A DNA stretch of 64,000 bases, from contig JAETPW010000003.1 of NCBI GenBank assembly GCA_021771025.1, positions 8,279-72,278 of the forward strand, given 5' to 3'. Positions 9,041-62,862 of this stretch are shown in pieces (the stretch's first letter is position 1; each line of letters starts with the position of its first letter). The translations under genes and the position numbers were made by a program. The stretch is from Clostridiaceae bacterium. GTDB taxonomy: Bacteria; Bacillota; Clostridia; TANB77; CAG-508. The notes under the pieces were generated by a model. It was given only the letters and a program-made list of their open reading frames with translations, searched no databases and was not told the DNA's origin.

Positions 9041-9697
9041 ATGGGACAAAAAGTACATCCAACAGGAGTTAGAGTTGGAATAATCAAAGACTGGAATTCA
9101 AAATGGTATGCCGATTCAAAAAACTTTTCTGACTATTTAGTAGAAGATCAAAAAATTCGTAAATTCCTTAAGAAAAAATTATATGCTAGTGGAATTGCCA
9201 AAATTGAGATCGAAAGAACTGCTAAAATGGTAAAAGTTAATTTGTATACAGCAAAACCAGGAATCGTAATTGGAAAAGGCGGAGCCGGAGCAGAAGCAAT
9301 CAAGGCTGAACTTGCCAAATTAATCGGAAAAGACGTTAACTTAAATATCGTAGAAGTAAAAAACGTAGACACAGACGCACAATTAGTTGCAGAAAATATT
9401 GCTGGACAATTGGAAAGAAGAATTTCCTTCAGAAGAGCCATGAAACAATGTATGCAAAAAGCAACTAAAGCAGGAGCTTTAGGAATCAAAACATCAGTAT
9501 CAGGAAGACTAGGTGGTGCTGATATGGCTAGAACTGAATTTTATAAAGAAGGAAACATTCCTTTACAAACCTTAAGAGCTGATATCGACTATGGATTTGC
9601 AGAAGCAGATACAACCTATGGAAAAATCGGTGTAAAAGTTTGGATCTATAAAGGAGAAATTCTTCCAAGTAAGAAAATGGAAGGAGGAGACAAATAA
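9041..9697 (+). CDS. rpsC: 30S ribosomal protein S3
   Basis: Translation [14 protein letters not shown]... with a KH domain. Confidence 0.95.
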
Positions 9698-10140
9698 TGC
9701 CATTAATGCCAAAAAGAACAAAATTTAGAAAAATGCAAAAAGGCAGAATGAGAGGAAAAGCAACAAGAGGAAATAAAGTAACAGACGGCGAATATGGAAT
9801 TCAAGCCGTAACCGGTGGATTAATCACAGGAAATCAAATTGAAGCAGCCCGTATTGCGATGACACGTTACATCAAAAGAGGGGGAAAAGTTTGGATCAAA
9901 ATCTTCCCAGACAAACCAATTACATCAAAACCAATTGGTACTCGTATGGGTAAAGGTAAAGGTGCTCCAGAATACTGGGTGGCAGTAACAAAACCAGGAA
10001 GAGTTATGTTTGAAATATCTGGTGTACCAGAAGAAACAGCAAGAGAAGCATTAAGACTTGCCATGAACAAACTACCTGTAAAATGTAAATTTGTCAGCAA
10101 AGAGGCAGAAAAGGTAGGTGAACATGATGAAGATAAATAA
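9697..10140 (+). CDS. rplP: 50S ribosomal protein L16
   Basis: Translation and operon position. Confidence 0.95.
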
Positions 10141-16616: not shown

Positions 16617-16675
16617 GGGTAGGGAAATAAAGGGGACGCCCTTTTCTTCCCTATTCAAAATTTCCCTATTTCAAG
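16617..16675 (+). repeat. GGGGACGCCC-core hairpin repeat, left-arm type (copy A)
   Basis: GGGTAGGGAAATAAAGGGGACGCCCTTTTCTTCCCTATTCAAAATTTCCCT is nearly identical to the left arm of the dnaK-dnaJ element. Confidence 0.8.
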
Positions 16676-17611: not shown

Positions 17612-17668
17612 AAATAGGGAAAAAATAGATAGGGAAAAAAAGGGCGTCCCCATAGGGAAGAAAGAAGG
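17612..17668 (+). repeat. GGGGACGCCC-core repeat, right-arm (inverted) type (copy B), 11 nt upstream of the map start codon
   Basis: AAATAGGGAAAAAATAGATAGGGAAAAAAAGGGCGTCCCCATAGGGAAGAAAG. Confidence 0.8.
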
Positions 17669-40536: not shown

Positions 40537-42228
40537 TTAGTTCTTGACGTTTAGTTGATAAATAGTCAGATAATCAATAGAAGTAATTTCTTGAAATTCA
40601 ATTTCCTTATCTTTAGCATAATGTTCCTTTAAAAAAGTAGAAATCATAGCCAAATGAGATAAATCCTGATGATCAATTAAATAATAATGATCATGAGTTA
40701 ACAAAGAAGAATAAAGACCATCAATTTCATATTTTTCTTTAAAACGATAATATTTACTATCATACATAGACCAACTTCCTAAAGGGTGAATATTTTGAAG
40801 AATTCCTTTAGGAGAAGTAGTAAATAGATTAGTTTGATAATAGCGTAATTGCAAAGCACGAGTAGGATAAACATAAGCATTTTCAGGATGACGGTTAAGG
40901 TAAGTAATCAACTTATTATAAGTCGCTTCATTATATTCGATATTTTCCCAAGTATCACTTATCGTAAAAAAAGCATAGGATAATGACTGAGCTAACAATA
41001 AAAAGACAAGTACGATATGAATAGTAATATGGCTAAGCAATAATTTACTCGATAGTCGACTGTTAAGAAGTAGCAAAAAAGCAGGAATAAACAGCACAGG
41101 ATAAACTACACGAAAAACATCTCTTCCTAATACAATAAATAACAAAAATTGCAAAATCCCGGGGAACAACAACCAAAACTTCTTTTTGGGGCTAGCTTTC
41201 AAAGTAAGGCATAAAAAGAGATAGATGAGTAGTAAATAAGTACTAGGTAGCAAAAAACAAAGGGCAAAAAACTGCTTACTATTCTCAAAGATAGAATGGA
41301 AAAAAGAAATTACATCAAAATGAAGGAAACGAGATATTCCATTCATCTCTTGATTCATCAGATTAATCGAAGCAACACGATCATGAGAAAATACCATTTC
41401 ATCACCAGCTGAAAATAAATGAAATAAGCGTAAATCATTTTCAGACCAACCAACTTGATCAGTTATTTGATTAGTTTCTTTAAAATAAGCAGTATCATTT
41501 AATATGCTACGTTCTTTATCGTATTGGTAATAATAAGATTTACGCTCATCTTGATAACCTTGCCAATGAAAAAAGAAAAGGATGCCATATACCATAAACA
41601 AAACAAGATTAATGCCGATAAACATACGCAAAGTAGAAAGTCTTCTCTTCGCTTGGTGGTGACGCATTATTTCATAAATACCGATGCCAATCGCAAAGAA
41701 TAGATAAGAAATAAACACAAGATGACGAATCAGAAGAGCTAGTACAAAAGTAATCATCAAAATGACAAAATCAGATTTCCTACGAAACGTATAATAGGAA
41801 AGTTGATACACTAAACTAAGTAGCAAATAACAATAAGCAACAATAGTGTATTGCAACTTCAGCGTAATAAGTACATAAACAGGAACAATAAAAAGGAACA
41901 AAACCAAATAACGAAGACGGGAATGTTTCTGTTTTTGCAGGAAACGATAAGTCAGAATAGTAAAAATAATCAGTTGGCTACCCACTAAGAATAAAGCATA
42001 CCAATTTAAGGAATGAAAAAGCCCAAACAAAAAAACGAATAAGTTAGCTAACCAAACATGAACATAAAGTACATGACAGTCAGATTGCCCATAATAACCC
42101 GCTAGCATTTCTTGGATCATATAATCATCAATTTCATTGTATTGAATGAGGTGTAAACCAAACAAAAGAAGAGTGATCAACACAAAGACAATACCAATGC
42201 TTATCCATTTTTTCATGAAAAAGGTCAT
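40537..42228 (-). CDS. Polytopic membrane protein, probably a GT-C fold glycosyltransferase
   Basis: 563 aa with more than 10 TM helices and a C-terminal soluble domain; a DDY-type motif sits in the first loop. Confidence 0.45.
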   Translation of the reverse strand: MTFFMKKWISIGIVFVLITLLLFGLHLIQYNEIDDYMIQEMLAGYYGQSDCHVLYVHVWLANLFVFLFGLFHSLNWYALFLVGSQLIIFTILTYRFLQKQKHSRLRYLVLFLFIVPVYVLITLKLQYTIVAYCYLLLSLVYQLSYYTFRRKSDFVILMITFVLALLIRHLVFISYLFFAIGIGIYEIMRHHQAKRRLSTLRMFIGINLVLFMVYGILFFFHWQGYQDERKSYYYQYDKERSILNDTAYFKETNQITDQVGWSENDLRLFHLFSAGDEMVFSHDRVASINLMNQEMNGISRFLHFDVISFFHSIFENSKQFFALCFLLPSTYLLLIYLFLCLTLKASPKKKFWLLFPGILQFLLFIVLGRDVFRVVYPVLFIPAFLLLLNSRLSSKLLLSHITIHIVLVFLLLAQSLSYAFFTISDTWENIEYNEATYNKLITYLNRHPENAYVYPTRALQLRYYQTNLFTTSPKGILQNIHPLGSWSMYDSKYYRFKEKYEIDGLYSSLLTHDHYYLIDHQDLSHLAMISTFLKEHYAKDKEIEFQEITSIDYLTIYQLNVKN

Positions 42229-42331
42229 TCCTTTCTTGTTTTGACTAGTACTAGTTATTGGTTAATAGCTTTTAGGAATAAGTCCGCTCAAACCCCAAGT
42301 CATCTATAGTATTTTTTAGATAAATTTAGTC

Positions 42332-42424
42332 TTCCATAGAGGGGGCTTTTTAAAACACTTAAGCCCCTAATAAAGAAGCCGGTTATTTAAGTGTTAAGCC
42401 TAACGTAGGCCTTAGGAAACTGTC
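42332..42424. repeat. Copy X of a conserved core of about 95 nt; it is homologous to the core of the inverted-repeat element at 49205-49304
   Basis: About 75% identity to the 49205-49304 core (shared TTCCATAG..AGGGG..CTTTTTAA..AAGCCTAACGT..GGAAACTGTC); flanked by a short inverted repeat AAATTTAG/CTAAATT. Confidence 0.6.
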
Positions 42425-42519
42425 TACCTAAATTAAAAAGGGGACAAAGGCTGGTTTTGGTCAACCTGTCCCTAAAAAGGTAATTTTACCATTTTTTACC
42501 CCGTCCCCAATTAGGTAAG

Positions 42520-44228: not shown

Positions 44229-44427
44229 TTACAGATACCTCCTTGTTATGGATTTTGTTTCCATTTAATTTACTTTTTTAGTAACGTTATTATACAATAT
44301 TTTTACATAAATAGCAAGAAAACGGGCAAAATAAAATAGAAGGTAAAGAGAAGAAGATACGATAAAATCAACTTGACTTTTTTTTATGGTCACACTAAAA
44401 TGAAAGATAAGATAGGAGTGGTAAAGA

Positions 44428-44703
44428 TTGAACGATAAGGAAATAAAGGAAATGCAAACAGCGTTAGAAAAAAATCAAGACAAAATGGTATTAATCGAAT
44501 TAACAGGAATCGTAGAAGCAAACTGGAAAGAGAACCAGATCAATTTGCAAGTAACAGAAGAAAAAATCGTAATAACGAAAAAAACGGAAACAATAGTAGC
44601 TTTCAATCTTCATCAACTAATGAAAACTAAACGAGAAACAAATAAAAAAATACGATTTGAATTTGATCCATTGCAAACCGTAATTTTGACCATAATGGAA
44701 TAA
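44428..44703 (+). CDS. Hypothetical protein (TTG start)
   Basis: ORF with an AGGAGTGG RBS and a TTGACT-17-TAAAAT promoter upstream. Confidence 0.4.
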   Translation: MNDKEIKEMQTALEKNQDKMVLIELTGIVEANWKENQINLQVTEEKIVITKKTETIVAFNLHQLMKTKRETNKKIRFEFDPLQTVILTIME

Positions 44704-44710
44704 AACACCA

Positions 44711-45001
44711 TTATTTTTTGAATGTATTAGCTAAATTTTCACATAAATCCAAATACAAATTTCGATGTTCTTCAGGAATAGAGTTTAGTAATTCACCGAA
44801 AGTGGTATCTACATTACTTAGGTTAATTCCCAATACAAGATAATCTAAATTAAGTGCTAAAACAGAGGCAATTTTAGTAATAGTGGATAAACTACAAATA
44901 CTTGTTCCACGTTCAATTTCACTCACATAAGAGGGAGATACATCAATCAATTCAGACAACTTTTCTTGTGTTAGTTTTAGTTCAACTCGTTTATTTTTCA
45001 T
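44711..45001 (-). CDS. XRE-family HTH transcriptional regulator
   Basis: LKLTQEKLSELIDVSPSYVSEIERGTSICSLSTITKIASVL. The start is chosen at MKNKRVEL; the longer ORF extends to 45193 through a hydrophobic segment. Confidence 0.55.
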   Translation of the reverse strand: MKNKRVELKLTQEKLSELIDVSPSYVSEIERGTSICSLSTITKIASVLALNLDYLVLGINLSNVDTTFGELLNSIPEEHRNLYLDLCENLANTFKK

Positions 45002-45167
45002 TCGTTTTCCGATTTCTACATAATTTAATTCATCCGTTTTTTTCACCTCATATATTATACCATATTGTATAACGAAAAAAATTCCAATAAAACCAACTAT
45101 AACTGTTGAAGATATACTATGACTGTGATAGAATAAAGAAAAAAAGGGAACGAAAGAGGAGATAAAA

Positions 45168-46369
45168 TGAACAAAGTTAAAAGAAAGTATCAATTAAAAA
45201 AAGCTCAAAAAATAATGGGGGATTACTTTAATTGCTTTAGTCATCACCATCATCGTACTTCTTATTTTAGCAGGGGTAACGATTGCTACATTGACAGGTA
45301 ATAATGGAATATTAACCAATGCTAATGAAGCCAAGAAAATGACCAAGATAGGAGAAATAAAAGAATTACTTCGGGATCAAACAAGCAGAACAAATTGAGG
45401 ACGATAACGTAGTAGAAAACTATGACAAATTAATTCAAAAACTAGAAGAACATCCTGAATATCTAATCATAGGAAATACCGTCAAAGCCAACTATCAGAA
45501 CTTTACTTGTGTAGAACAACAACTATTAGTACAAGATGCACACGTAGAAATAACAGGGGAAAACACAAAACCATATGGTAGTATAGAAAAAGAAATGAAA
45601 GACGGAAAAGTGATATTAACGATTTATGGCGTAGATGATGATACAGACATCAAAACAATCATTAGCCCTAATGGGGAAGAAAAGAAAATTAATTATGAAG
45701 AGGATAGAATTATTAATATAACTGACTTATTAACAGAGGTAGATCCATACGTTCAAACAACAGTAAAAAATTTTCACCATTATTTAAAAGAAATAGTTTA
45801 TCATGTACAAGATAAAAAAAGTGAAGAAATAGATTTACAAAAAGATAAGAAAAATATCATCGTAAATACTACTTGGTATTGGGGAATAAAGAAACCAAAG
45901 GTAATAAATCAATGTTTTGAAAATGGATTTTCTGTTTTAACAAATGGAAATGATAATAAAAGTGATCTAAAAATTATTAAGAGTTATGAACAAGGAAGTG
46001 CAGAAGAAATTCAAAATACTAAGATACTAAAATCTAATGAAATCACGTCACAAGACATCAATAGTAGTGAACAGGGGGAAGATGGCAAATCAATTACAAC
46101 GATCAAGTAGAAGTATGGAAAAAAGAGATAAAAACAGATGGAAGTGAAAGAGATTTAATTGGCTGTTGGAAAGGAGAAAAAGAAAATAAATGGATTGACC
46201 TTCATAATGAAAATATAGAAAATAATACAATATTCCGTAATAGTATTTATCGCCTTTCCGGAACGCGTAGCTTAACGTATGAAGTAACCCAAAACGGAAC
46301 ATACACATTTACATTAGTGGATTTGTGTGGGAATAGAGCTGAATTAAATGTTGATGTAAATGAATTATA
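45168..46369 (+). pseudogene. Type IV pilin-like/pseudopilin-like gene broken by three frameshifts (near 45215, 45360-45396 and 46108)
   Basis: MNKVKRKYQLKKAQKIMG then a frame change to ITLIALVITIIVLLILAGVTIATLTGNNGIL (prepilin-like hydrophobic N-terminus, no Glu at +5), then two further frame changes; the first occurs in a GGGGG run. Confidence 0.45.
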
Positions 46370-46406
46370 AGATATAAAAGAAAATGAAGAAGATAATTAA
46401 AAATTA

Positions 46407-46440
46407 AATTGGTCAGTGATGTCTGACCAATTTGATTTTA
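46407..46440 (+). terminator. Rho-independent terminator
   Basis: ATTGGTCAG/CTGACCAAT stem followed by a T-run. Confidence 0.65.
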
Positions 46441-46792
46441 TAAAATAGGTAAAACTTTAAGAGGGGCATATAATTAATGAATAAAATAATGTACCCAATT
46501 TTAAAGAAAGATAGAGAATATTTCACTAATGAAGTGGAGCATATTCTCTATTTTTACACCAAAAGACAAGATAATCAAAGATAAACTTAATATCAAAAAT
46601 GAATGATAAAATTAACAAAATCCAATGACAAAAATTATTTTTTATTGTATAATATAAAAGTAAAGATGAGTAAGACAAAAAAGCAAAGCTCAAAAATAAA
46701 TAGCAAAAGGGTTTATGGGTATCCACGGAAAAACCTAAATAGATTATACAAGGAAAATATGCTAGCAGACAAGCTAACATAAGCAAAGAAAA

Positions 46793-48022
46793 ATGAAATG
46801 TATATTAATGAATAAAAATACTCCTATAGCTTTAATTGAATACAACACTACCTATCACGCCATGGAAAAAATAGATAAAGAATACAACATAGACTATGCA
46901 CCTCTTTCTTTCATCAATGCGAAAAAAAATAGATCATTAAATGAAGTAAAAGTATTGAACGAATGGTTTAAAAGTAGAGGAATTCCATCATGGAGAAAAG
47001 ACTTAGAAAGACTATTAGAAAGGCTAAACATTACCTCACCAGATGAACTATTAACGAAAGCTTTTGCCTTATCTTTATCAGACCAATATTGGATAAAAGA
47101 AAAAGATAGTCATATCGAATGGAAAGATATTAACTTTTTCATGAATGATTTTGAATACAAAGGTTATCTAGCAGCCTCTTTAAGTAGCATAAACAAAACG
47201 GAAAAAATTAGTCTTCATTCACCTAATAATACAACAGATGGAATGTTACAAAAAGGCTGGATAATCGAAAATGGGAAAAGAATTCTAGTAAAGGGAACAT
47301 ATGCACCAAGCAGACAAGAACCAATCAATGAATGGTTAGCCTCTACCATAGGAAAAAGGCTAGGATTTGATTATTGTAACTATACTGTTGAAATTTCAGA
47401 CAATAAAATTATTTCAAAATGTGAAAATTTTGTTCATGAAAACGAAGAAATAATCACCGCAAAAGACATCTTTTCATCAGAACAAAAAAATAATAACGTA
47501 AGTGACCTAGAACATTATATTAACCTATTAGAAAAACACGAAGTGCCAAATGCAAGAGAAAATGTAGAAAATATGCTTATACTAGACTATATCATGATGA
47601 ATGACGATAGGCACCTAAGAAATTTCGGGGTAATAAGAAATGTTGATACACTAAAATGGGTAAAAACGACCCCTATCTTTGATACAGGAGAATCAATGCA
47701 ATGTAGAAAGTTGACTAGCGAAATCAACTTTTTAGATGGAGAAGGCAAGTTTTTTACCAATACAGAACGAAAATTTTCTACTTATTTAAGAGAAATAAAA
47801 GAAATAGAAAGAATTCCCTACCAAAAACTAAATAGAGTACAAGAAGAATATAAACAAATGCTAATAGATACTCAAAAATACACAGAAATAACAGAAGAAA
47901 GAACAGAAAAATTAGTACAAGGACTAGCATTAAGAATTGCACTTTTAGGAAAACAAATTGAAAAAGCAAAACATCGGTTAATGAGAAATCAAGAAAAAAT
48001 ATACTTAAACATAAAATGGTAA
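46793..48022 (+). CDS. HipA-like serine/threonine kinase (type II toxin family) without an obvious HipB partner
   Basis: HipA C-terminal catalytic motif LILDYIMMNDDRHLRNFGVIRN and N-terminal LSDQYWIKE-type region. Confidence 0.65.
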   Translation: MKCILMNKNTPIALIEYNTTYHAMEKIDKEYNIDYAPLSFINAKKNRSLNEVKVLNEWFKSRGIPSWRKDLERLLERLNITSPDELLTKAFALSLSDQYWIKEKDSHIEWKDINFFMNDFEYKGYLAASLSSINKTEKISLHSPNNTTDGMLQKGWIIENGKRILVKGTYAPSRQEPINEWLASTIGKRLGFDYCNYTVEISDNKIISKCENFVHENEEIITAKDIFSSEQKNNNVSDLEHYINLLEKHEVPNARENVENMLILDYIMMNDDRHLRNFGVIRNVDTLKWVKTTPIFDTGESMQCRKLTSEINFLDGEGKFFTNTERKFSTYLREIKEIERIPYQKLNRVQEEYKQMLIDTQKYTEITEERTEKLVQGLALRIALLGKQIEKAKHRLMRNQEKIYLNIKW

Positions 48023-48163: not shown

Positions 48164-49009
48164 ATGTTTTTTGAAATCATTCAATTTTTCGTTTACTCTG
48201 CCCTAATCATTCTAATTTCCAAATACATTCTCGTAAAAACCTTACGAAAATTAGCAGAAAACTTAAACTTAAAGCCACAAACAGTAGGAGATATTGCAGG
48301 ATATGCTACCTCAGTTCCTGAATTGTTAACGATTGGTGCATCTAGCTTTAGGAGATTAATGGGAGCAAGCATTTACAATATTTTAAGTTCTAACATCATC
48401 AATTTAATTCAATACTTAGCCTCTGTTTTCATGAGTAAGAACAAAAAGGCATTTCAAAACAAAGCAATTTTAACCGATATAGGGCTAGTCATCATAACGA
48501 TTATTATTCCGATCCTATTCATGTGGGCTAATATAGAACTAAACCTAAGTATTGTACCTATTTTCATTTTACTTTATTTTCTATTTCGTATCATCAACCA
48601 AAATGTTCACAAAGTATACCTGAAAAAAGAAGACGAAAAATTAGCCAAACAAATCGAAGAAGAAGAGCAAAAGGAAAAAGGAAACACCAAAAAGACATTA
48701 TTGTATACCATTACATTATTAGGTACAGGAATACTTCTATTTGTGATTGGAGATGCTCTAGGAAATACCTTAGAAAACTTAGCCAATACTTTTGGCATTT
48801 CTCAAACATTTCTAGGAATTTTATTAGGATTTGCTACTAGCTTGCCAGAATTAATTACCTTTTTTGAAGCACAAAAACATTATCAAGAGCAAGAAGCAGA
48901 CGATATTTTAGGAGTGGTGGAAGCAACTAATAATTTATTGACGTCTAATATATTAAACTTGTTTGCCATTCAGTCGATTGGAATCCTCATTTTCCATATT
49001 TTTCATTAA
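48164..49009 (+). CDS. Ca2+/cation antiporter (CaCA/YrbG-like) membrane protein
   Basis: Two alpha-repeat motifs GYATSVPEL and GFATSLPEL. Confidence 0.65.
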   Translation: MFFEIIQFFVYSALIILISKYILVKTLRKLAENLNLKPQTVGDIAGYATSVPELLTIGASSFRRLMGASIYNILSSNIINLIQYLASVFMSKNKKAFQNKAILTDIGLVIITIIIPILFMWANIELNLSIVPIFILLYFLFRIINQNVHKVYLKKEDEKLAKQIEEEEQKEKGNTKKTLLYTITLLGTGILLFVIGDALGNTLENLANTFGISQTFLGILLGFATSLPELITFFEAQKHYQEQEADDILGVVEATNNLLTSNILNLFAIQSIGILIFHIFH

Positions 49010-49134
49010 ATTCGTTACAAGTGCCTGATCTTATTGAAGGAGTTTTCTTTAAGGAGGTCAGGTCTTTACCATTTATTAGGGCATCCACCTCAAAAGTGGA
49101 CTAAATCAAAGTGGATGTGAATTATTGCTGTTAC

Positions 49135-49385
49135 TATTTACCGTTTGCTGTAATTCTATCCGTGTAAAAAGGTAAGCCTAGCTAATGGTGATCCTATTAA
49201 TTTAACCTTCCATAGCAGGGTCTTTTTAAGACCTTTAGGTCCCTCTACACCGAAGCCTGTTATCGGGTTTTAAGCCTAACGTGGTCTTAGGGAACTGTCA
49301 GGTATAAATTAATAGGATCACCATTAGCTAGGCTTACCTTTTTACACTACTCTACAATTTATACGGCTGTAAATGGTAAAATTTT
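49135..49385. repeat. Inverted-repeat (MITE-like) element of about 250 bp: 43-bp perfect arms (49162-49204 and 49305-49347, extended imperfectly to about 80 bp) around a 100-nt core homologous to 42332-42424
   Basis: GTGTAAAAAGGTAAGCCTAGCTAATGGTGATCCTATTAATTTA and its exact reverse complement flank the core. Confidence 0.7.
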
Positions 49386-49457
49386 CACAAAGAATTCACA
49401 AAAAAATGAGCAAAAGGTATTGACTTTTGCTCATTTTGGATATAATATAATACAAGA

Positions 49458-49484
49458 TTAGCAATCGAAACAAAAGAGTGCTAA
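49458..49484 (+). promoter_or_regulatory. CIRCE operator (HrcA binding site) with promoter TTGACT...TATAAT at 49420-49446
   Basis: TTAGCAATC-N9-GAGTGCTAA matches the CIRCE consensus TTAGCACTC-N9-GAGTGCTAA, directly upstream of hrcA. Confidence 0.8.
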
Positions 49485-54095: not shown

Positions 54096-54118
54096 GAGAG
54101 AAAAGAAAAAAGACAGGT

Positions 54119-54258
54119 AGGTAGGGAAATAAGGGGGACGCCCTTTTCTTCCCTATCTAAAATTTCCCTCTTTCTCCTAATTTAAAAATAGAAAAATCAA
54201 TACAATAGAAAGAAGTTATGGGATAGGGAAGAAAAGGGCGTCCCCCTTATTTCCCTAC
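54119..54258. repeat. GGGGACGCCC-core element, complete copy C: perfect 37-bp inverted arms (54121-54157 and 54222-54258) separated by 64 nt, between dnaK and dnaJ
   Basis: GTAGGGAAATAAGGGGGACGCCCTTTTCTTCCCTATC and its exact reverse complement. Confidence 0.85.
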
Positions 54259-54287
54259 TTACTACATAAAATGGAGGAAGTTAATCA

Positions 54288-60965: not shown

Positions 60966-61102
60966 GGAACTAGGGAAAAAAAGGGGACGCCCTTAATTTC
61001 CCTATCCAAAATTTCCCTGTTTTAACAATAGCAGTAATATTCAGCAGTAAATCAATAGGGAAAAAAAGCATAGGGAAGAAAAGGGCGTCCCCTAAGGGAA
61101 AG
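60962..61102. repeat. GGGGACGCCC-core element, copy D: an imperfect inverted pair separated by about 70 nt. It overlaps the ruvB stop and ends about 10 nt before the next ATG
   Basis: Left arm AGGGAAAAAAAGGGGACGCCCTTAATTTCCCTATCC; right arm ATAGGGAAGAAAAGGGCGTCCCCTAAGGGAAAGG. Confidence 0.8.
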
Positions 61103-61111
61103 GATATAAAT

Positions 61112-62671
61112 ATGAGGAACAAAGCAAAAAAAATAGCCATATTTGCTTTCTTATTTGTGATGATATTATCATTATTACTCATCAAACCAATTGAAGATTT
61201 AGATGAAATATGGAATTATAATACAGCCAGAGCAATTGCCTCAGGCTTAACACCTTACCGAGAAGTTAGCATGATCACCACTCCATTTTTACCCATGATA
61301 AATTCTCTTTTTTTGCACGGGATAGCCAATCAAGTGATTACCATGAGAGTGTTAGCAGCTTTATTAGGAGCAGGAATTTGCTATTTACTTTACCGTATAT
61401 TTCAGCACATTTGGCACGAAACCAATATCAGTTTAATAGCAACAGCAGGAATAGGGTATTTACTTCATGAATTTTTCTGTTTAGACTATAACTTTGCCAA
61501 TCTTTTTATCGCTCTCCTATTGTTGCTGATTACGATAAACCAAAATCAAAAACAACAATCCATACAAGAAATCACTCTCCAGAAGAATAAACAAATAGGA
61601 ATGGGGTTATTAGCGGGAATAGCGATAGGAATTAAGCAAACAACAGGACTTACCATTTGCTTAATTACCTTACTACTACCTCTGCTAGAAATACGAAAAA
61701 AAGAAGACTTAAAAGCATATGGGAAAATAACAGCCTATCGCATAATAGGAATGGCGATTCCCATGATAGGATTACTAGGATATTTAATCATCACACAATC
61801 TTTACCTGACTTTATTTCCTACTCTATACAAGGAATATCAACATTTACCAATCAAATCCCATATGAACGATTATTAGAAAGCGACAAAACAGAAATAAAA
61901 ATACTAGCTAGATTAGTACCAATCTCATGGCTTATTCTATTAATAACAAGTATAATCACAAGAAAAAAACACCAAGAAAGAAACAATTGGCTAAGTATGC
62001 TAGGATATGGACTAGCCATGATTATTATGATCTATCCTATCTCAGACGAAATACATTTTATCATTGGAAGCACAATTTTTATTCTAGCCGATATAGCTAT
62101 TTTAGGAAGCTTTGGAAAATATGTCCTACAAAAATTAATCATCAAATTCCCCAAACTACACCTAAAAAGAACCTATAAAATCATCACATTATTGCTATTT
62201 TTAGGAATCTATGGCTGGATAGCAAGTAAAGGCATAACCAACCTAAGGAAATACGATACCTTAGAAAAAAACGAAACAATCGCTCACTACCAAGAAATCG
62301 AAATAAAAGACTATTTAAAGCAAAGAATTAATGAAATAGACCAATACATCACCGAAAAAAACAAGCAAGGAAAAACAGTGTATATCCTAGATGCAGAAGC
62401 AGCAATTTACCAAATCCCATTAAACCACTATCACAAAAACTTTGATATGTTCTTAAAAGGAAACTTAGGAAAAGAAGGAGAACAAGGAATAATCAAACAA
62501 ATCCAAGAACTACAGCAAGACCCTAACAACCTATTTCTCATTCGTCATCCAGACTGGCGACAAAATTGGCAAACACCAATGGAAGTTATTCAGTATGTAA
62601 GAAACAATTTCATTAAAACGGGAGAAATATCGTTTTATGAAGAATTTCTTCCTTCTGGGGACGGTTCCTAA
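61112..62671 (+). CDS. Polytopic membrane protein, GT-C fold glycosyltransferase-like (ArnT/PMT/YfhO-like)
   Basis: 519 aa with more than 10 TM helices and the loop motif DLDEIWNYNTARAIASG. Confidence 0.5.
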   Translation: MRNKAKKIAIFAFLFVMILSLLLIKPIEDLDEIWNYNTARAIASGLTPYREVSMITTPFLPMINSLFLHGIANQVITMRVLAALLGAGICYLLYRIFQHIWHETNISLIATAGIGYLLHEFFCLDYNFANLFIALLLLLITINQNQKQQSIQEITLQKNKQIGMGLLAGIAIGIKQTTGLTICLITLLLPLLEIRKKEDLKAYGKITAYRIIGMAIPMIGLLGYLIITQSLPDFISYSIQGISTFTNQIPYERLLESDKTEIKILARLVPISWLILLITSIITRKKHQERNNWLSMLGYGLAMIIMIYPISDEIHFIIGSTIFILADIAILGSFGKYVLQKLIIKFPKLHLKRTYKIITLLLFLGIYGWIASKGITNLRKYDTLEKNETIAHYQEIEIKDYLKQRINEIDQYITEKNKQGKTVYILDAEAAIYQIPLNHYHKNFDMFLKGNLGKEGEQGIIKQIQELQQDPNNLFLIRHPDWRQNWQTPMEVIQYVRNNFIKTGEISFYEEFLPSGDGS

Positions 62672-62862
62672 AACGAAAAAATTTTCCTTTTAGGGACAGG
62701 TCTATTAAGAAAGATAGAAAAGACCAAGAAATGGGAACCATTGATTTAAACGGAAAAACTCCATTAAGAAAAAATAAAAATAGATAATAGCAAACGGTAA
62801 GACGTGTCCCAAAAACGAAAAAAACTTCGTTTTGAGAACCGTCCCCAAAACGAAAAAAGGAG
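62657..62862. repeat. Intergenic repeat cluster: inverted GGGGACGGTTC/GAACCGTCCCC about 180 bp apart, plus three copies of AAAACGAAAAAA
   Basis: 62657-62667 is the reverse complement of 62838-62848; direct repeats GTCCC(C)AAAA(A)CGAAAAAA at 62805 and 62842; hairpin AAAACGAA..TTCGTTTT. Confidence 0.6.

Follow-up and report, generated by a model that had tools for sequence, protein, structure and literature searches.

The DNA lying immediately upstream of the hrcA–grpE–dnaK operon in an uncultured gut bacterium is probably a non-autonomous, MITE-like palindromic insertion into a variable intergenic spacer, and most likely a composite one. It was analysed within a stretch of 64,000 nucleotides (the window) with a GC content of about 32%. 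According to this reading, a unit of ~117 bp with short AT-rich terminal inverted repeats (ATTAATTTA...TAAATTAAT) would be carried in the loop of a ~150-bp hairpin element, itself made of 43-nt perfect inner arms and imperfect outer arms. The architecture of this hairpin would be the same as that of the palindromic repeats that populate the intergenic DNA of related species, and an architecture like that of one such family (F1, described below) would account for the two tiers of arm identity. The solo copy found by serS shows the unit existing without arms. The element seems to have been mobilised in trans by a transposase encoded elsewhere, a nested insertion seems preferable to a single element with long terminal inverted repeats (TIRs), and the element seems to have no dedicated function. 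Regarding the host, the exact HrcA protein has been found only in mouse-gut and related metagenome assemblies, and the nearest named relatives by HrcA (77–87% identity) are MAGs deposited as "uncultured Clostridia bacterium" or Clostridium sp. CAG:575 / CAG:440.

A repeat search of the 64-kb window returned a perfect inverted repeat whose two 43-nt arms, 49162–49204 and 49305–49347, are 100% complementary and enclose a 100-nt spacer, in agreement with a first-pass annotation that had described 43-bp perfect arms around a 100-nt core. Within the window, a 33-nt pattern from the arms matches at the two arms only, where shuffled sequences would be expected to give 0 matches. With a custom inverted-repeat finder the arms lengthen to 48 nt at 94% identity, as pairing resumes for 4–5 bp into the spacer (ACCT/AGGT) beyond a 2-nt bulge. 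Outside the perfect arms, complementarity falls abruptly from 100% in the inner 43 nt to about 60–65%. The reverse complement of 49090–49161 aligned to 49348–49420 gives a local score of 21, compared with 14.3 ± 2.5 in shuffles, and a score of at least 21 was reached in 21 of 1000 shuffles (p about 0.02). In the predicted RNA fold (dG -121.5 kcal/mol, z = -11.7) the outer flanks are paired to about 49116/49400. The imperfect outer arms of ~80 bp that had been proposed are therefore plausible, but their significance is weak. No ORF of at least 20 aa is present within 49131–49380. The features of the locus are as follows.

49010–49379, unstranded: all the species-specific DNA, from the exchanger stop codon to the conserved hrcA upstream box; 71 unrelated nt stand here instead in the relative L114.
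49131–49161, unstranded: outer left imperfect arm, beginning GTTACTATTTACC, with imperfect pairing to 49348–49380 in the fold.
49162–49204, unstranded: left perfect 43-nt arm, from the repeat search; it carries a 1-nt deletion in assemblies L110 and L111.
49196–49312, plus strand: copy 1 of the 117-nt repeat unit, that is, the 100-nt spacer and the inner 8–9 nt of either arm, from local alignment to 42320–42437 (nhmmer E = 6e-35).
49305–49347, unstranded: right perfect 43-nt arm, from the repeat search; the hrcA-side Logan contigs start inside it, at 49318.
49348–49380, unstranded: outer right imperfect arm (TACTCTACAATTTATACGGCTGTAAATGGTAAA), ending where homology to element-less relatives picks up.
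49384–49484, plus strand: native hrcA control region, outside the element, with the TTCACAAAGAATTCACA box, the promoter TTGACT...TATAAT (promoter scan) and the CIRCE-like operator; conserved in all the relatives aligned.

The element is thus flanked by the stop codon of a Na/Ca-exchanger gene (48164–49009) on one side and by the hrcA promoter and CIRCE operator on the other. A promoter scan placed TTGACT at 49420, downstream of the element, in line with the earlier placement of the palindrome upstream of the hrcA promoter, and the CIRCE-like operator TTAGCAATC-N9-GAGTGCTAA follows at 49458–49484. Since all 370 nt are lineage-specific, no left edge can be assigned to the insertion. Several features of the control region itself have also been observed. 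Across the clade, hardly any variation is seen in a tandem TTCACAAA(A/G)AATTCACA box (window 49384–49400) that immediately precedes the hrcA promoter, and in some relatives (L079, L038, L014) an inverted TGTGAATT copy is found upstream of it. Regulators of the TGTGA/TCACA type (Rex- or Crp-like) have half-sites that this tandem box resembles. The hrcA -35 element is overlapped by a CIRCE-like TTAGCAAAAGGTATTGACAAGTGCTAA in most relatives; the window (49403–49437) and L114 read TGAGCAAAAGGTATTGACTTTTGCTCA, a different yet perfect 10 to 14-bp inverted repeat in the same place, as if the operator palindrome had been remodelled on both halves in these two species.

The element is not an assembly artefact. 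The JGI metagenome contig L110, from a strain that is 99% related, contains all of it in the same orientation; here the left arm has lost 1 nt, one T in the core has become A, and the right outer flank has two substitutions. The same left-arm deletion has been found in the independent Logan assembly L111. Two Logan unitigs, L091 and L111, cross the left arm and reach the core, and the orientation is like that of the window in all four assemblies that cross an arm (window, L110, L091 and L111). Many other Logan unitigs, coming from either side, break about 30 nt into the arm, we infer because the perfect repeat exceeds the assembler word size. The 1-nt arm deletion in one strain argues against an active process that keeps the arms perfect.

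The 117-nt unit recurs on the same strand at 42320–42437, with ~75% identity (local alignment; nhmmer E about 1e-34). The core had already been noticed at this second locus, over 42332–42424, and the alignment extends the shared stretch in both directions. The second copy is bordered on one side by the 3' end of serS and on the other by the start of orf563, which encodes an uncharacterised membrane-anchored protein of 563 aa; the coordinates are as follows.

42320–42437, plus strand: copy 2 of the 117-nt repeat unit, with a mere 7-nt terminal inverted repeat (AATTTAG/CTAAATT), from alignment and nhmmer.
42222–42429, unstranded: additional DNA in the serS–orf563 spacer compared with the sister species, with copy 2 at its right edge; 17 nt are present here in L107 and L108.

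The two copies keep long identical blocks, TTAAGCCTAACGT and CTTCCATAG. Around copy 2 there is no sequence like the long arms, and its 7-nt terminal repeat is not significant alone. Past the 117 nt, the flanks of the two copies have no significant similarity except for the 11-mer TAAAAAGGTAA (6 of 500 shuffles), which falls within the native serS terminator repeats. The window contains two units and one pair of arms. Since the second copy is without arms, it may be that the 117-nt core moves by itself and that the arms are no part of the mobile unit. No Pfam domain was found in the orf563 product (40537–42228, minus strand), encoded downstream of copy 2, and a search of 5.8 billion proteins gave just three homologues (100%, 76% and 23% identity); the protein is essentially an orphan confined to this species and its sister.

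Relatives lacking the element have been found for both sites. In L114/L115, where the exchanger gene is 86% and hrcA–grpE 89.5% identical to the window at the nucleotide level, copy 1 is absent, and the 71 nt of L114 give way to homology at 49380, where the right imperfect arm ends on its outer side. In L116, homology picks up at 49384, after 2.5 kb of other genes. In L107/L108 (83–89% nucleotide identity) copy 2 is missing, the 17 nt standing in place of window 42222–42429. The first-pass annotation had suggested looking for insertion polymorphism in related strains, and these alignments have shown both copies to be, on sequence comparison, insertions relative to close relatives; the site of copy 1 in L114 bears no clean excision footprint. 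The units are ~75% identical, yet both insertions post-date splits at 83–90% identity, which points to source copies that had already diverged. The two would therefore not be recent copies of each other, and the repeat family must, on this reasoning, exist beyond the window. The absence of the element from L114 also implies that the whole assembly is young, which is enough for perfect arms. Thus, of the two explanations that had been advanced for the perfection of the arms, a recent origin suffices, whereas active maintenance is contradicted by the arm deletion seen in two independent assemblies.

Close relatives have entirely different DNA in the spacer that separates the exchanger gene from the hrcA box: L114 has 71 nt and the window 370 nt, whereas L116 has about 2.5 kb carrying two ORFs, L113 other genes over at least 3.8 kb, and L098 a gene of the SPL family. 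Judging from these alignments, the spacer is a hot spot at which lineage-specific DNA has inserted repeatedly. In the window, an island at about 44230–48022, between DUF1653/serS and the exchanger gene, contains an Xre-type HTH gene (44711–45193), small ORFs and a HipA-like kinase (46793–48022). In more distant relatives serS adjoins the exchanger gene; L114 has Tn916-type Xis and integrase genes upstream instead, and L113 a type I restriction subunit, all of which marks about 44230–48022 as a variable region. In another species (HrcA 88%; P0003 contigs L101–L106), six independent Logan contigs all start 197 or 210 nt upstream of hrcA, which suggests a further repeat or palindrome boundary at the equivalent place.

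The core had also been described as structured, and as a possible ncRNA carried in a long hairpin. On that view the core would be a gene for a small structured RNA, or else a cis-regulatory RNA, present as two paralogues of which one is displayed in the long hairpin; we consider this very unlikely. Conservation of two copies over about 117 nt with long identical blocks would be compatible with such a gene, as would a GGGGCTT/AAGCCCC helix of copy 2 that is partly kept in copy 1, its U–G pairs being allowed on the plus strand only. The structural evidence points the other way. At the gathering threshold, Rfam matched nothing in the whole window except a tRNA at 542–615, and permissive scans of both copies (E <= 10) gave miRNA and snoRNA models far below threshold, so the proposed scan of the core matched no family. 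When both strands of the core were folded, the MFE z-scores were -0.7 and -0.5 for copy 1 and -1.6 and -0.7 for copy 2. RNAalifold found 0 compensatory pairs between the two copies on either strand, with a positive covariation term, that is, a penalty. In addition, a consensus scan predicted no promoter or terminator in the core of either copy, and the unit is missing both at the orthologous sites of the sister species and in 1.4 Mb of relatives, a pattern unexpected for a useful RNA gene. The claim of a structured ncRNA core is thus not borne out.

The position of the element could alternatively be explained by an inverton, in which a site-specific recombinase would flip the 100-bp segment (49205–49304) between the 43-bp repeats and so aim a minus-strand promoter-like block towards or away from hrcA–grpE–dnaK. 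The junction of the reverse orientation would read, for example, ...ATTAATTTA followed directly by TACCTGACAG. As in the invertons described in PMC11602134, most of which are shorter than 300 bp, perfect inverted repeats bracket a short segment directly upstream of an operon, the host here being a gut bacterium, and on the minus strand the blocks best conserved in the unit read CTGACA/TAGACA, 17/18 nt and TAGGCT, the block of copy 2 facing orf563. However, unlike in those invertons, no second orientation has been seen, the four assemblies crossing an arm sharing one, and a convincing internal promoter is missing: the promoter scan was blank in the core, TAGGCT is a poor -10, and the minus-strand GACA-N17/18-TAGGCT is weak. 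In addition, the scan of neighbouring genes revealed no recombinase, hrcA is served by a conserved promoter of its own farther downstream, the segment in copy 2 is not flanked by usable inverted repeats, and an arm indel is present in one strain. We therefore give the inverton hardly any credence.

For the preferred reading, a MITE-like insertion, the traces of transposition and the source of the element have been sought with largely negative results. Target-site duplications (TSDs), for which a check at the element flanks had been proposed, are found neither at 49131/49380 (TTATTGCT compared with ATTTTCAC) nor at 49162/49347 (TTCTATCC compared with TACTCTAC), and none is present at copy 2. 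The ends of the 117-nt unit share self-complementary AT-rich words alone, which for that very reason are uninformative as a TSD. The missing duplication is not decisive, because TSDs decay with age (PMC10969869). No further copy of the 43-nt arms turned up in the 64-kb window or in the ~1.4 Mb of sequence from relatives, and an nhmmer search of the same DNA with the unit recovered the two copies and the L110 orthologue and nothing else. Further copies of core and arms, for which a database search had been proposed, have thus not emerged beyond these. Exact-pattern scans of genome, metagenome (two patterns) and viral (three patterns) contigs gave 0 matches, weak negatives given that the metagenome set is evidently without L110, and blastn against plasmids and phages gave 0 matches as well. 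No transposase or recombinase is encoded in the neighbouring genes scanned, and no parent IS with matching ends was found, the arms having no second occurrence in the window; a matching IS would be recognised by ends reading ATTAATTTAAC... or GTTACTATT....

Other palindromic repeats exist in the same spacer of relatives. Examples are L014 8972–9208 (61-nt arms at 98%, 115-nt spacer), L026 3031–3125, and others in L043 and L098. The L014 palindrome and the other spacer palindromes of relatives are unrelated in sequence to the window element. Homology of its arms to those of L014 and L026, by concerted evolution of an ancient hairpin, was considered and dropped (z < 1 in shuffle tests). The L014 hairpin is followed (9215–9990) by a seemingly duplicated hrcA-type promoter driving a small ORF (9309–9665) and then by the real hrcA promoter, and partial relatives of the L014 element are found at L018 7907–8051 and L020 9025–9083. 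The repeat of the L026 type, here called F1, is about 165 bp long and multi-copy; the 5.9-kb contig L026 alone contains three copies, and further ones are found in L016, L011 and L090, as listed below.

L026 960–1121: F1 copy.
L026 2096–2259: F1 copy.
L026 3000–3157: F1 copy.
L016 17983–18149: F1 copy.
L011 14899–15051: F1 copy.
L090 13071–13177: F1 copy.

The F1 ends read GTTAC...GTAAC, and two of the copies are flanked by perfect 8-bp target duplications, AAAAATAG and CTTTTTCA. From its sequence, F1 looks like a bona fide MITE family of this uncultured clade and, being multi-copy with 8-bp duplications, indicates that active palindromic MITEs exist in it. The window element resembles F1 in its two-tier hairpin, with imperfect outer and near-perfect inner arms, in its ends (GTTAC.ATT.A ... 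ACTACTCTACAA..AATAGTAAC), and in its place, since the copy L026_c likewise adjoins the TTCACA box that precedes hrcA. On the other hand, the inner arms and loop of F1 are unrelated to those of the window element, its loop is about 25 nt long instead of a 100-nt unit, and its 8-bp TSD is not seen at the window element. At the termini, the window reads GTTAC at 49131 and GGTAAA at the right end, compared with ...AGTAAC in strain L110. The right outer arm (49348–49380) aligns with the right ends of the F1 copies L026_c and L026_b; the start of the outer left arm resembles the F1 left ends, a resemblance that is not significant in a pairwise test (z < 1). Searched with a profile of five F1 copies, nhmmer gave no match at E <= 1 across the window; when the search was confined to the 321-nt region, the profile matched only a 24-nt segment, with E = 0.075. 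Taken together, the resemblance of the window element to F1 is no more than suggestive, and kinship is statistically weak.

A second, unrelated family of hairpin repeats, rich in GGGGACG/GGGACAGG motifs, was observed in the window at 54117–54262 (in the dnaK–dnaJ spacer), 60968–61093, 62645–62858, 16619–16670, 17612–17651 and 42440–42515. Its dnaK–dnaJ member has 41-nt arms at 98% and a 64-nt loop. Nested hairpins containing GGGAC are frequent after genes in many relatives, for example at L013 13646–13728, L016 13532–13626, L086 14212–14388 and L090 16404–16692, among others.

The uniqueness of the arms bears on a different origin for the palindrome, in which the 117-nt unit would have landed first and fold-back or template-switch repair would then have duplicated its flank in inverted orientation, so that the arms would not be transposon ends at all. 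Such formation in place is unlikely, although of some weight: the arms have no other copy anywhere searched, copy 2 has none, their perfection fits a single recent duplication, and the short complementary ends of the unit (ACCT...AGGT) could prime the fold-back. However, the step from 100% to about 60–65% identity is not expected of one duplication event, neither arm resembles the empty-site sequence of L114, and the similar two-tier palindromes of unrelated species are multi-copy repeats with TSDs.

The MITE-like insertion favoured here can also be compared with known classes of repeats. Prokaryotic MITEs have been described as elements of <500 bp with TIRs, typically of 4–30 bp, that target AT-rich intergenic DNA, give stem-loop transcripts and lose their TSDs over time (PMC10969869); their general features are also covered in PMC3184786. 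The window element, at ~250 bp, is likewise non-coding, AT-rich, bounded by inverted termini, intergenic next to a promoter, predicted to give a stem-loop transcript, and variably present between close relatives. It differs in that its arms are 43 nt long and perfect, no TSD has been detected, the arms are single-copy as far as searched, no parent IS has been found, and its centre is itself a separate repeat unit. The earlier proposal of a non-autonomous transposon is therefore supported in part, as regards the extra lineage-specific DNA, the inverted termini and the core repeat, which is inserted elsewhere too, and is weakened by the lack of a TSD and of a second copy of the arms. Prokaryotic MITEs that are imperfect palindromes over their whole length include ERIC, Correia/NEMIS, RUP and Bacillus bcr1. 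With REP/BIME-type palindromes, the element shares an intergenic location, hairpin formation and lineage specificity; REPs, in contrast, are about 20–40 nt long, GC-rich and highly multi-copy, whereas the element is 250 nt long, AT-rich and seemingly low-copy. Any effect on hrcA may be incidental, for example through a hairpin in read-through transcripts from the exchanger gene, and insulation of hrcA would be possible. A long RNA hairpin arising from read-through could be cut by RNase III.

A further view, which we regard as distinctly improbable, is that the 117-nt unit is one of a class of very small mobile elements, as yet undescribed, which home to centres or loops of palindromes already present and so build nested hairpins, or that the 43-bp repeats are inverton sites before hrcA–grpE–dnaK. 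If the nested insertion or the inverton were true, the locus would become a model for palindrome-targeted transposition or for phase-variable control of chaperones, respectively; present evidence favours neither. The element explains the breaks in the short-read assemblies of this species at the locus. Its value is above all one of annotation, since next to a core stress operon it flags mobile, junk-like DNA in a low-GC gut lineage of uncultured Clostridia whose repeats are undescribed.
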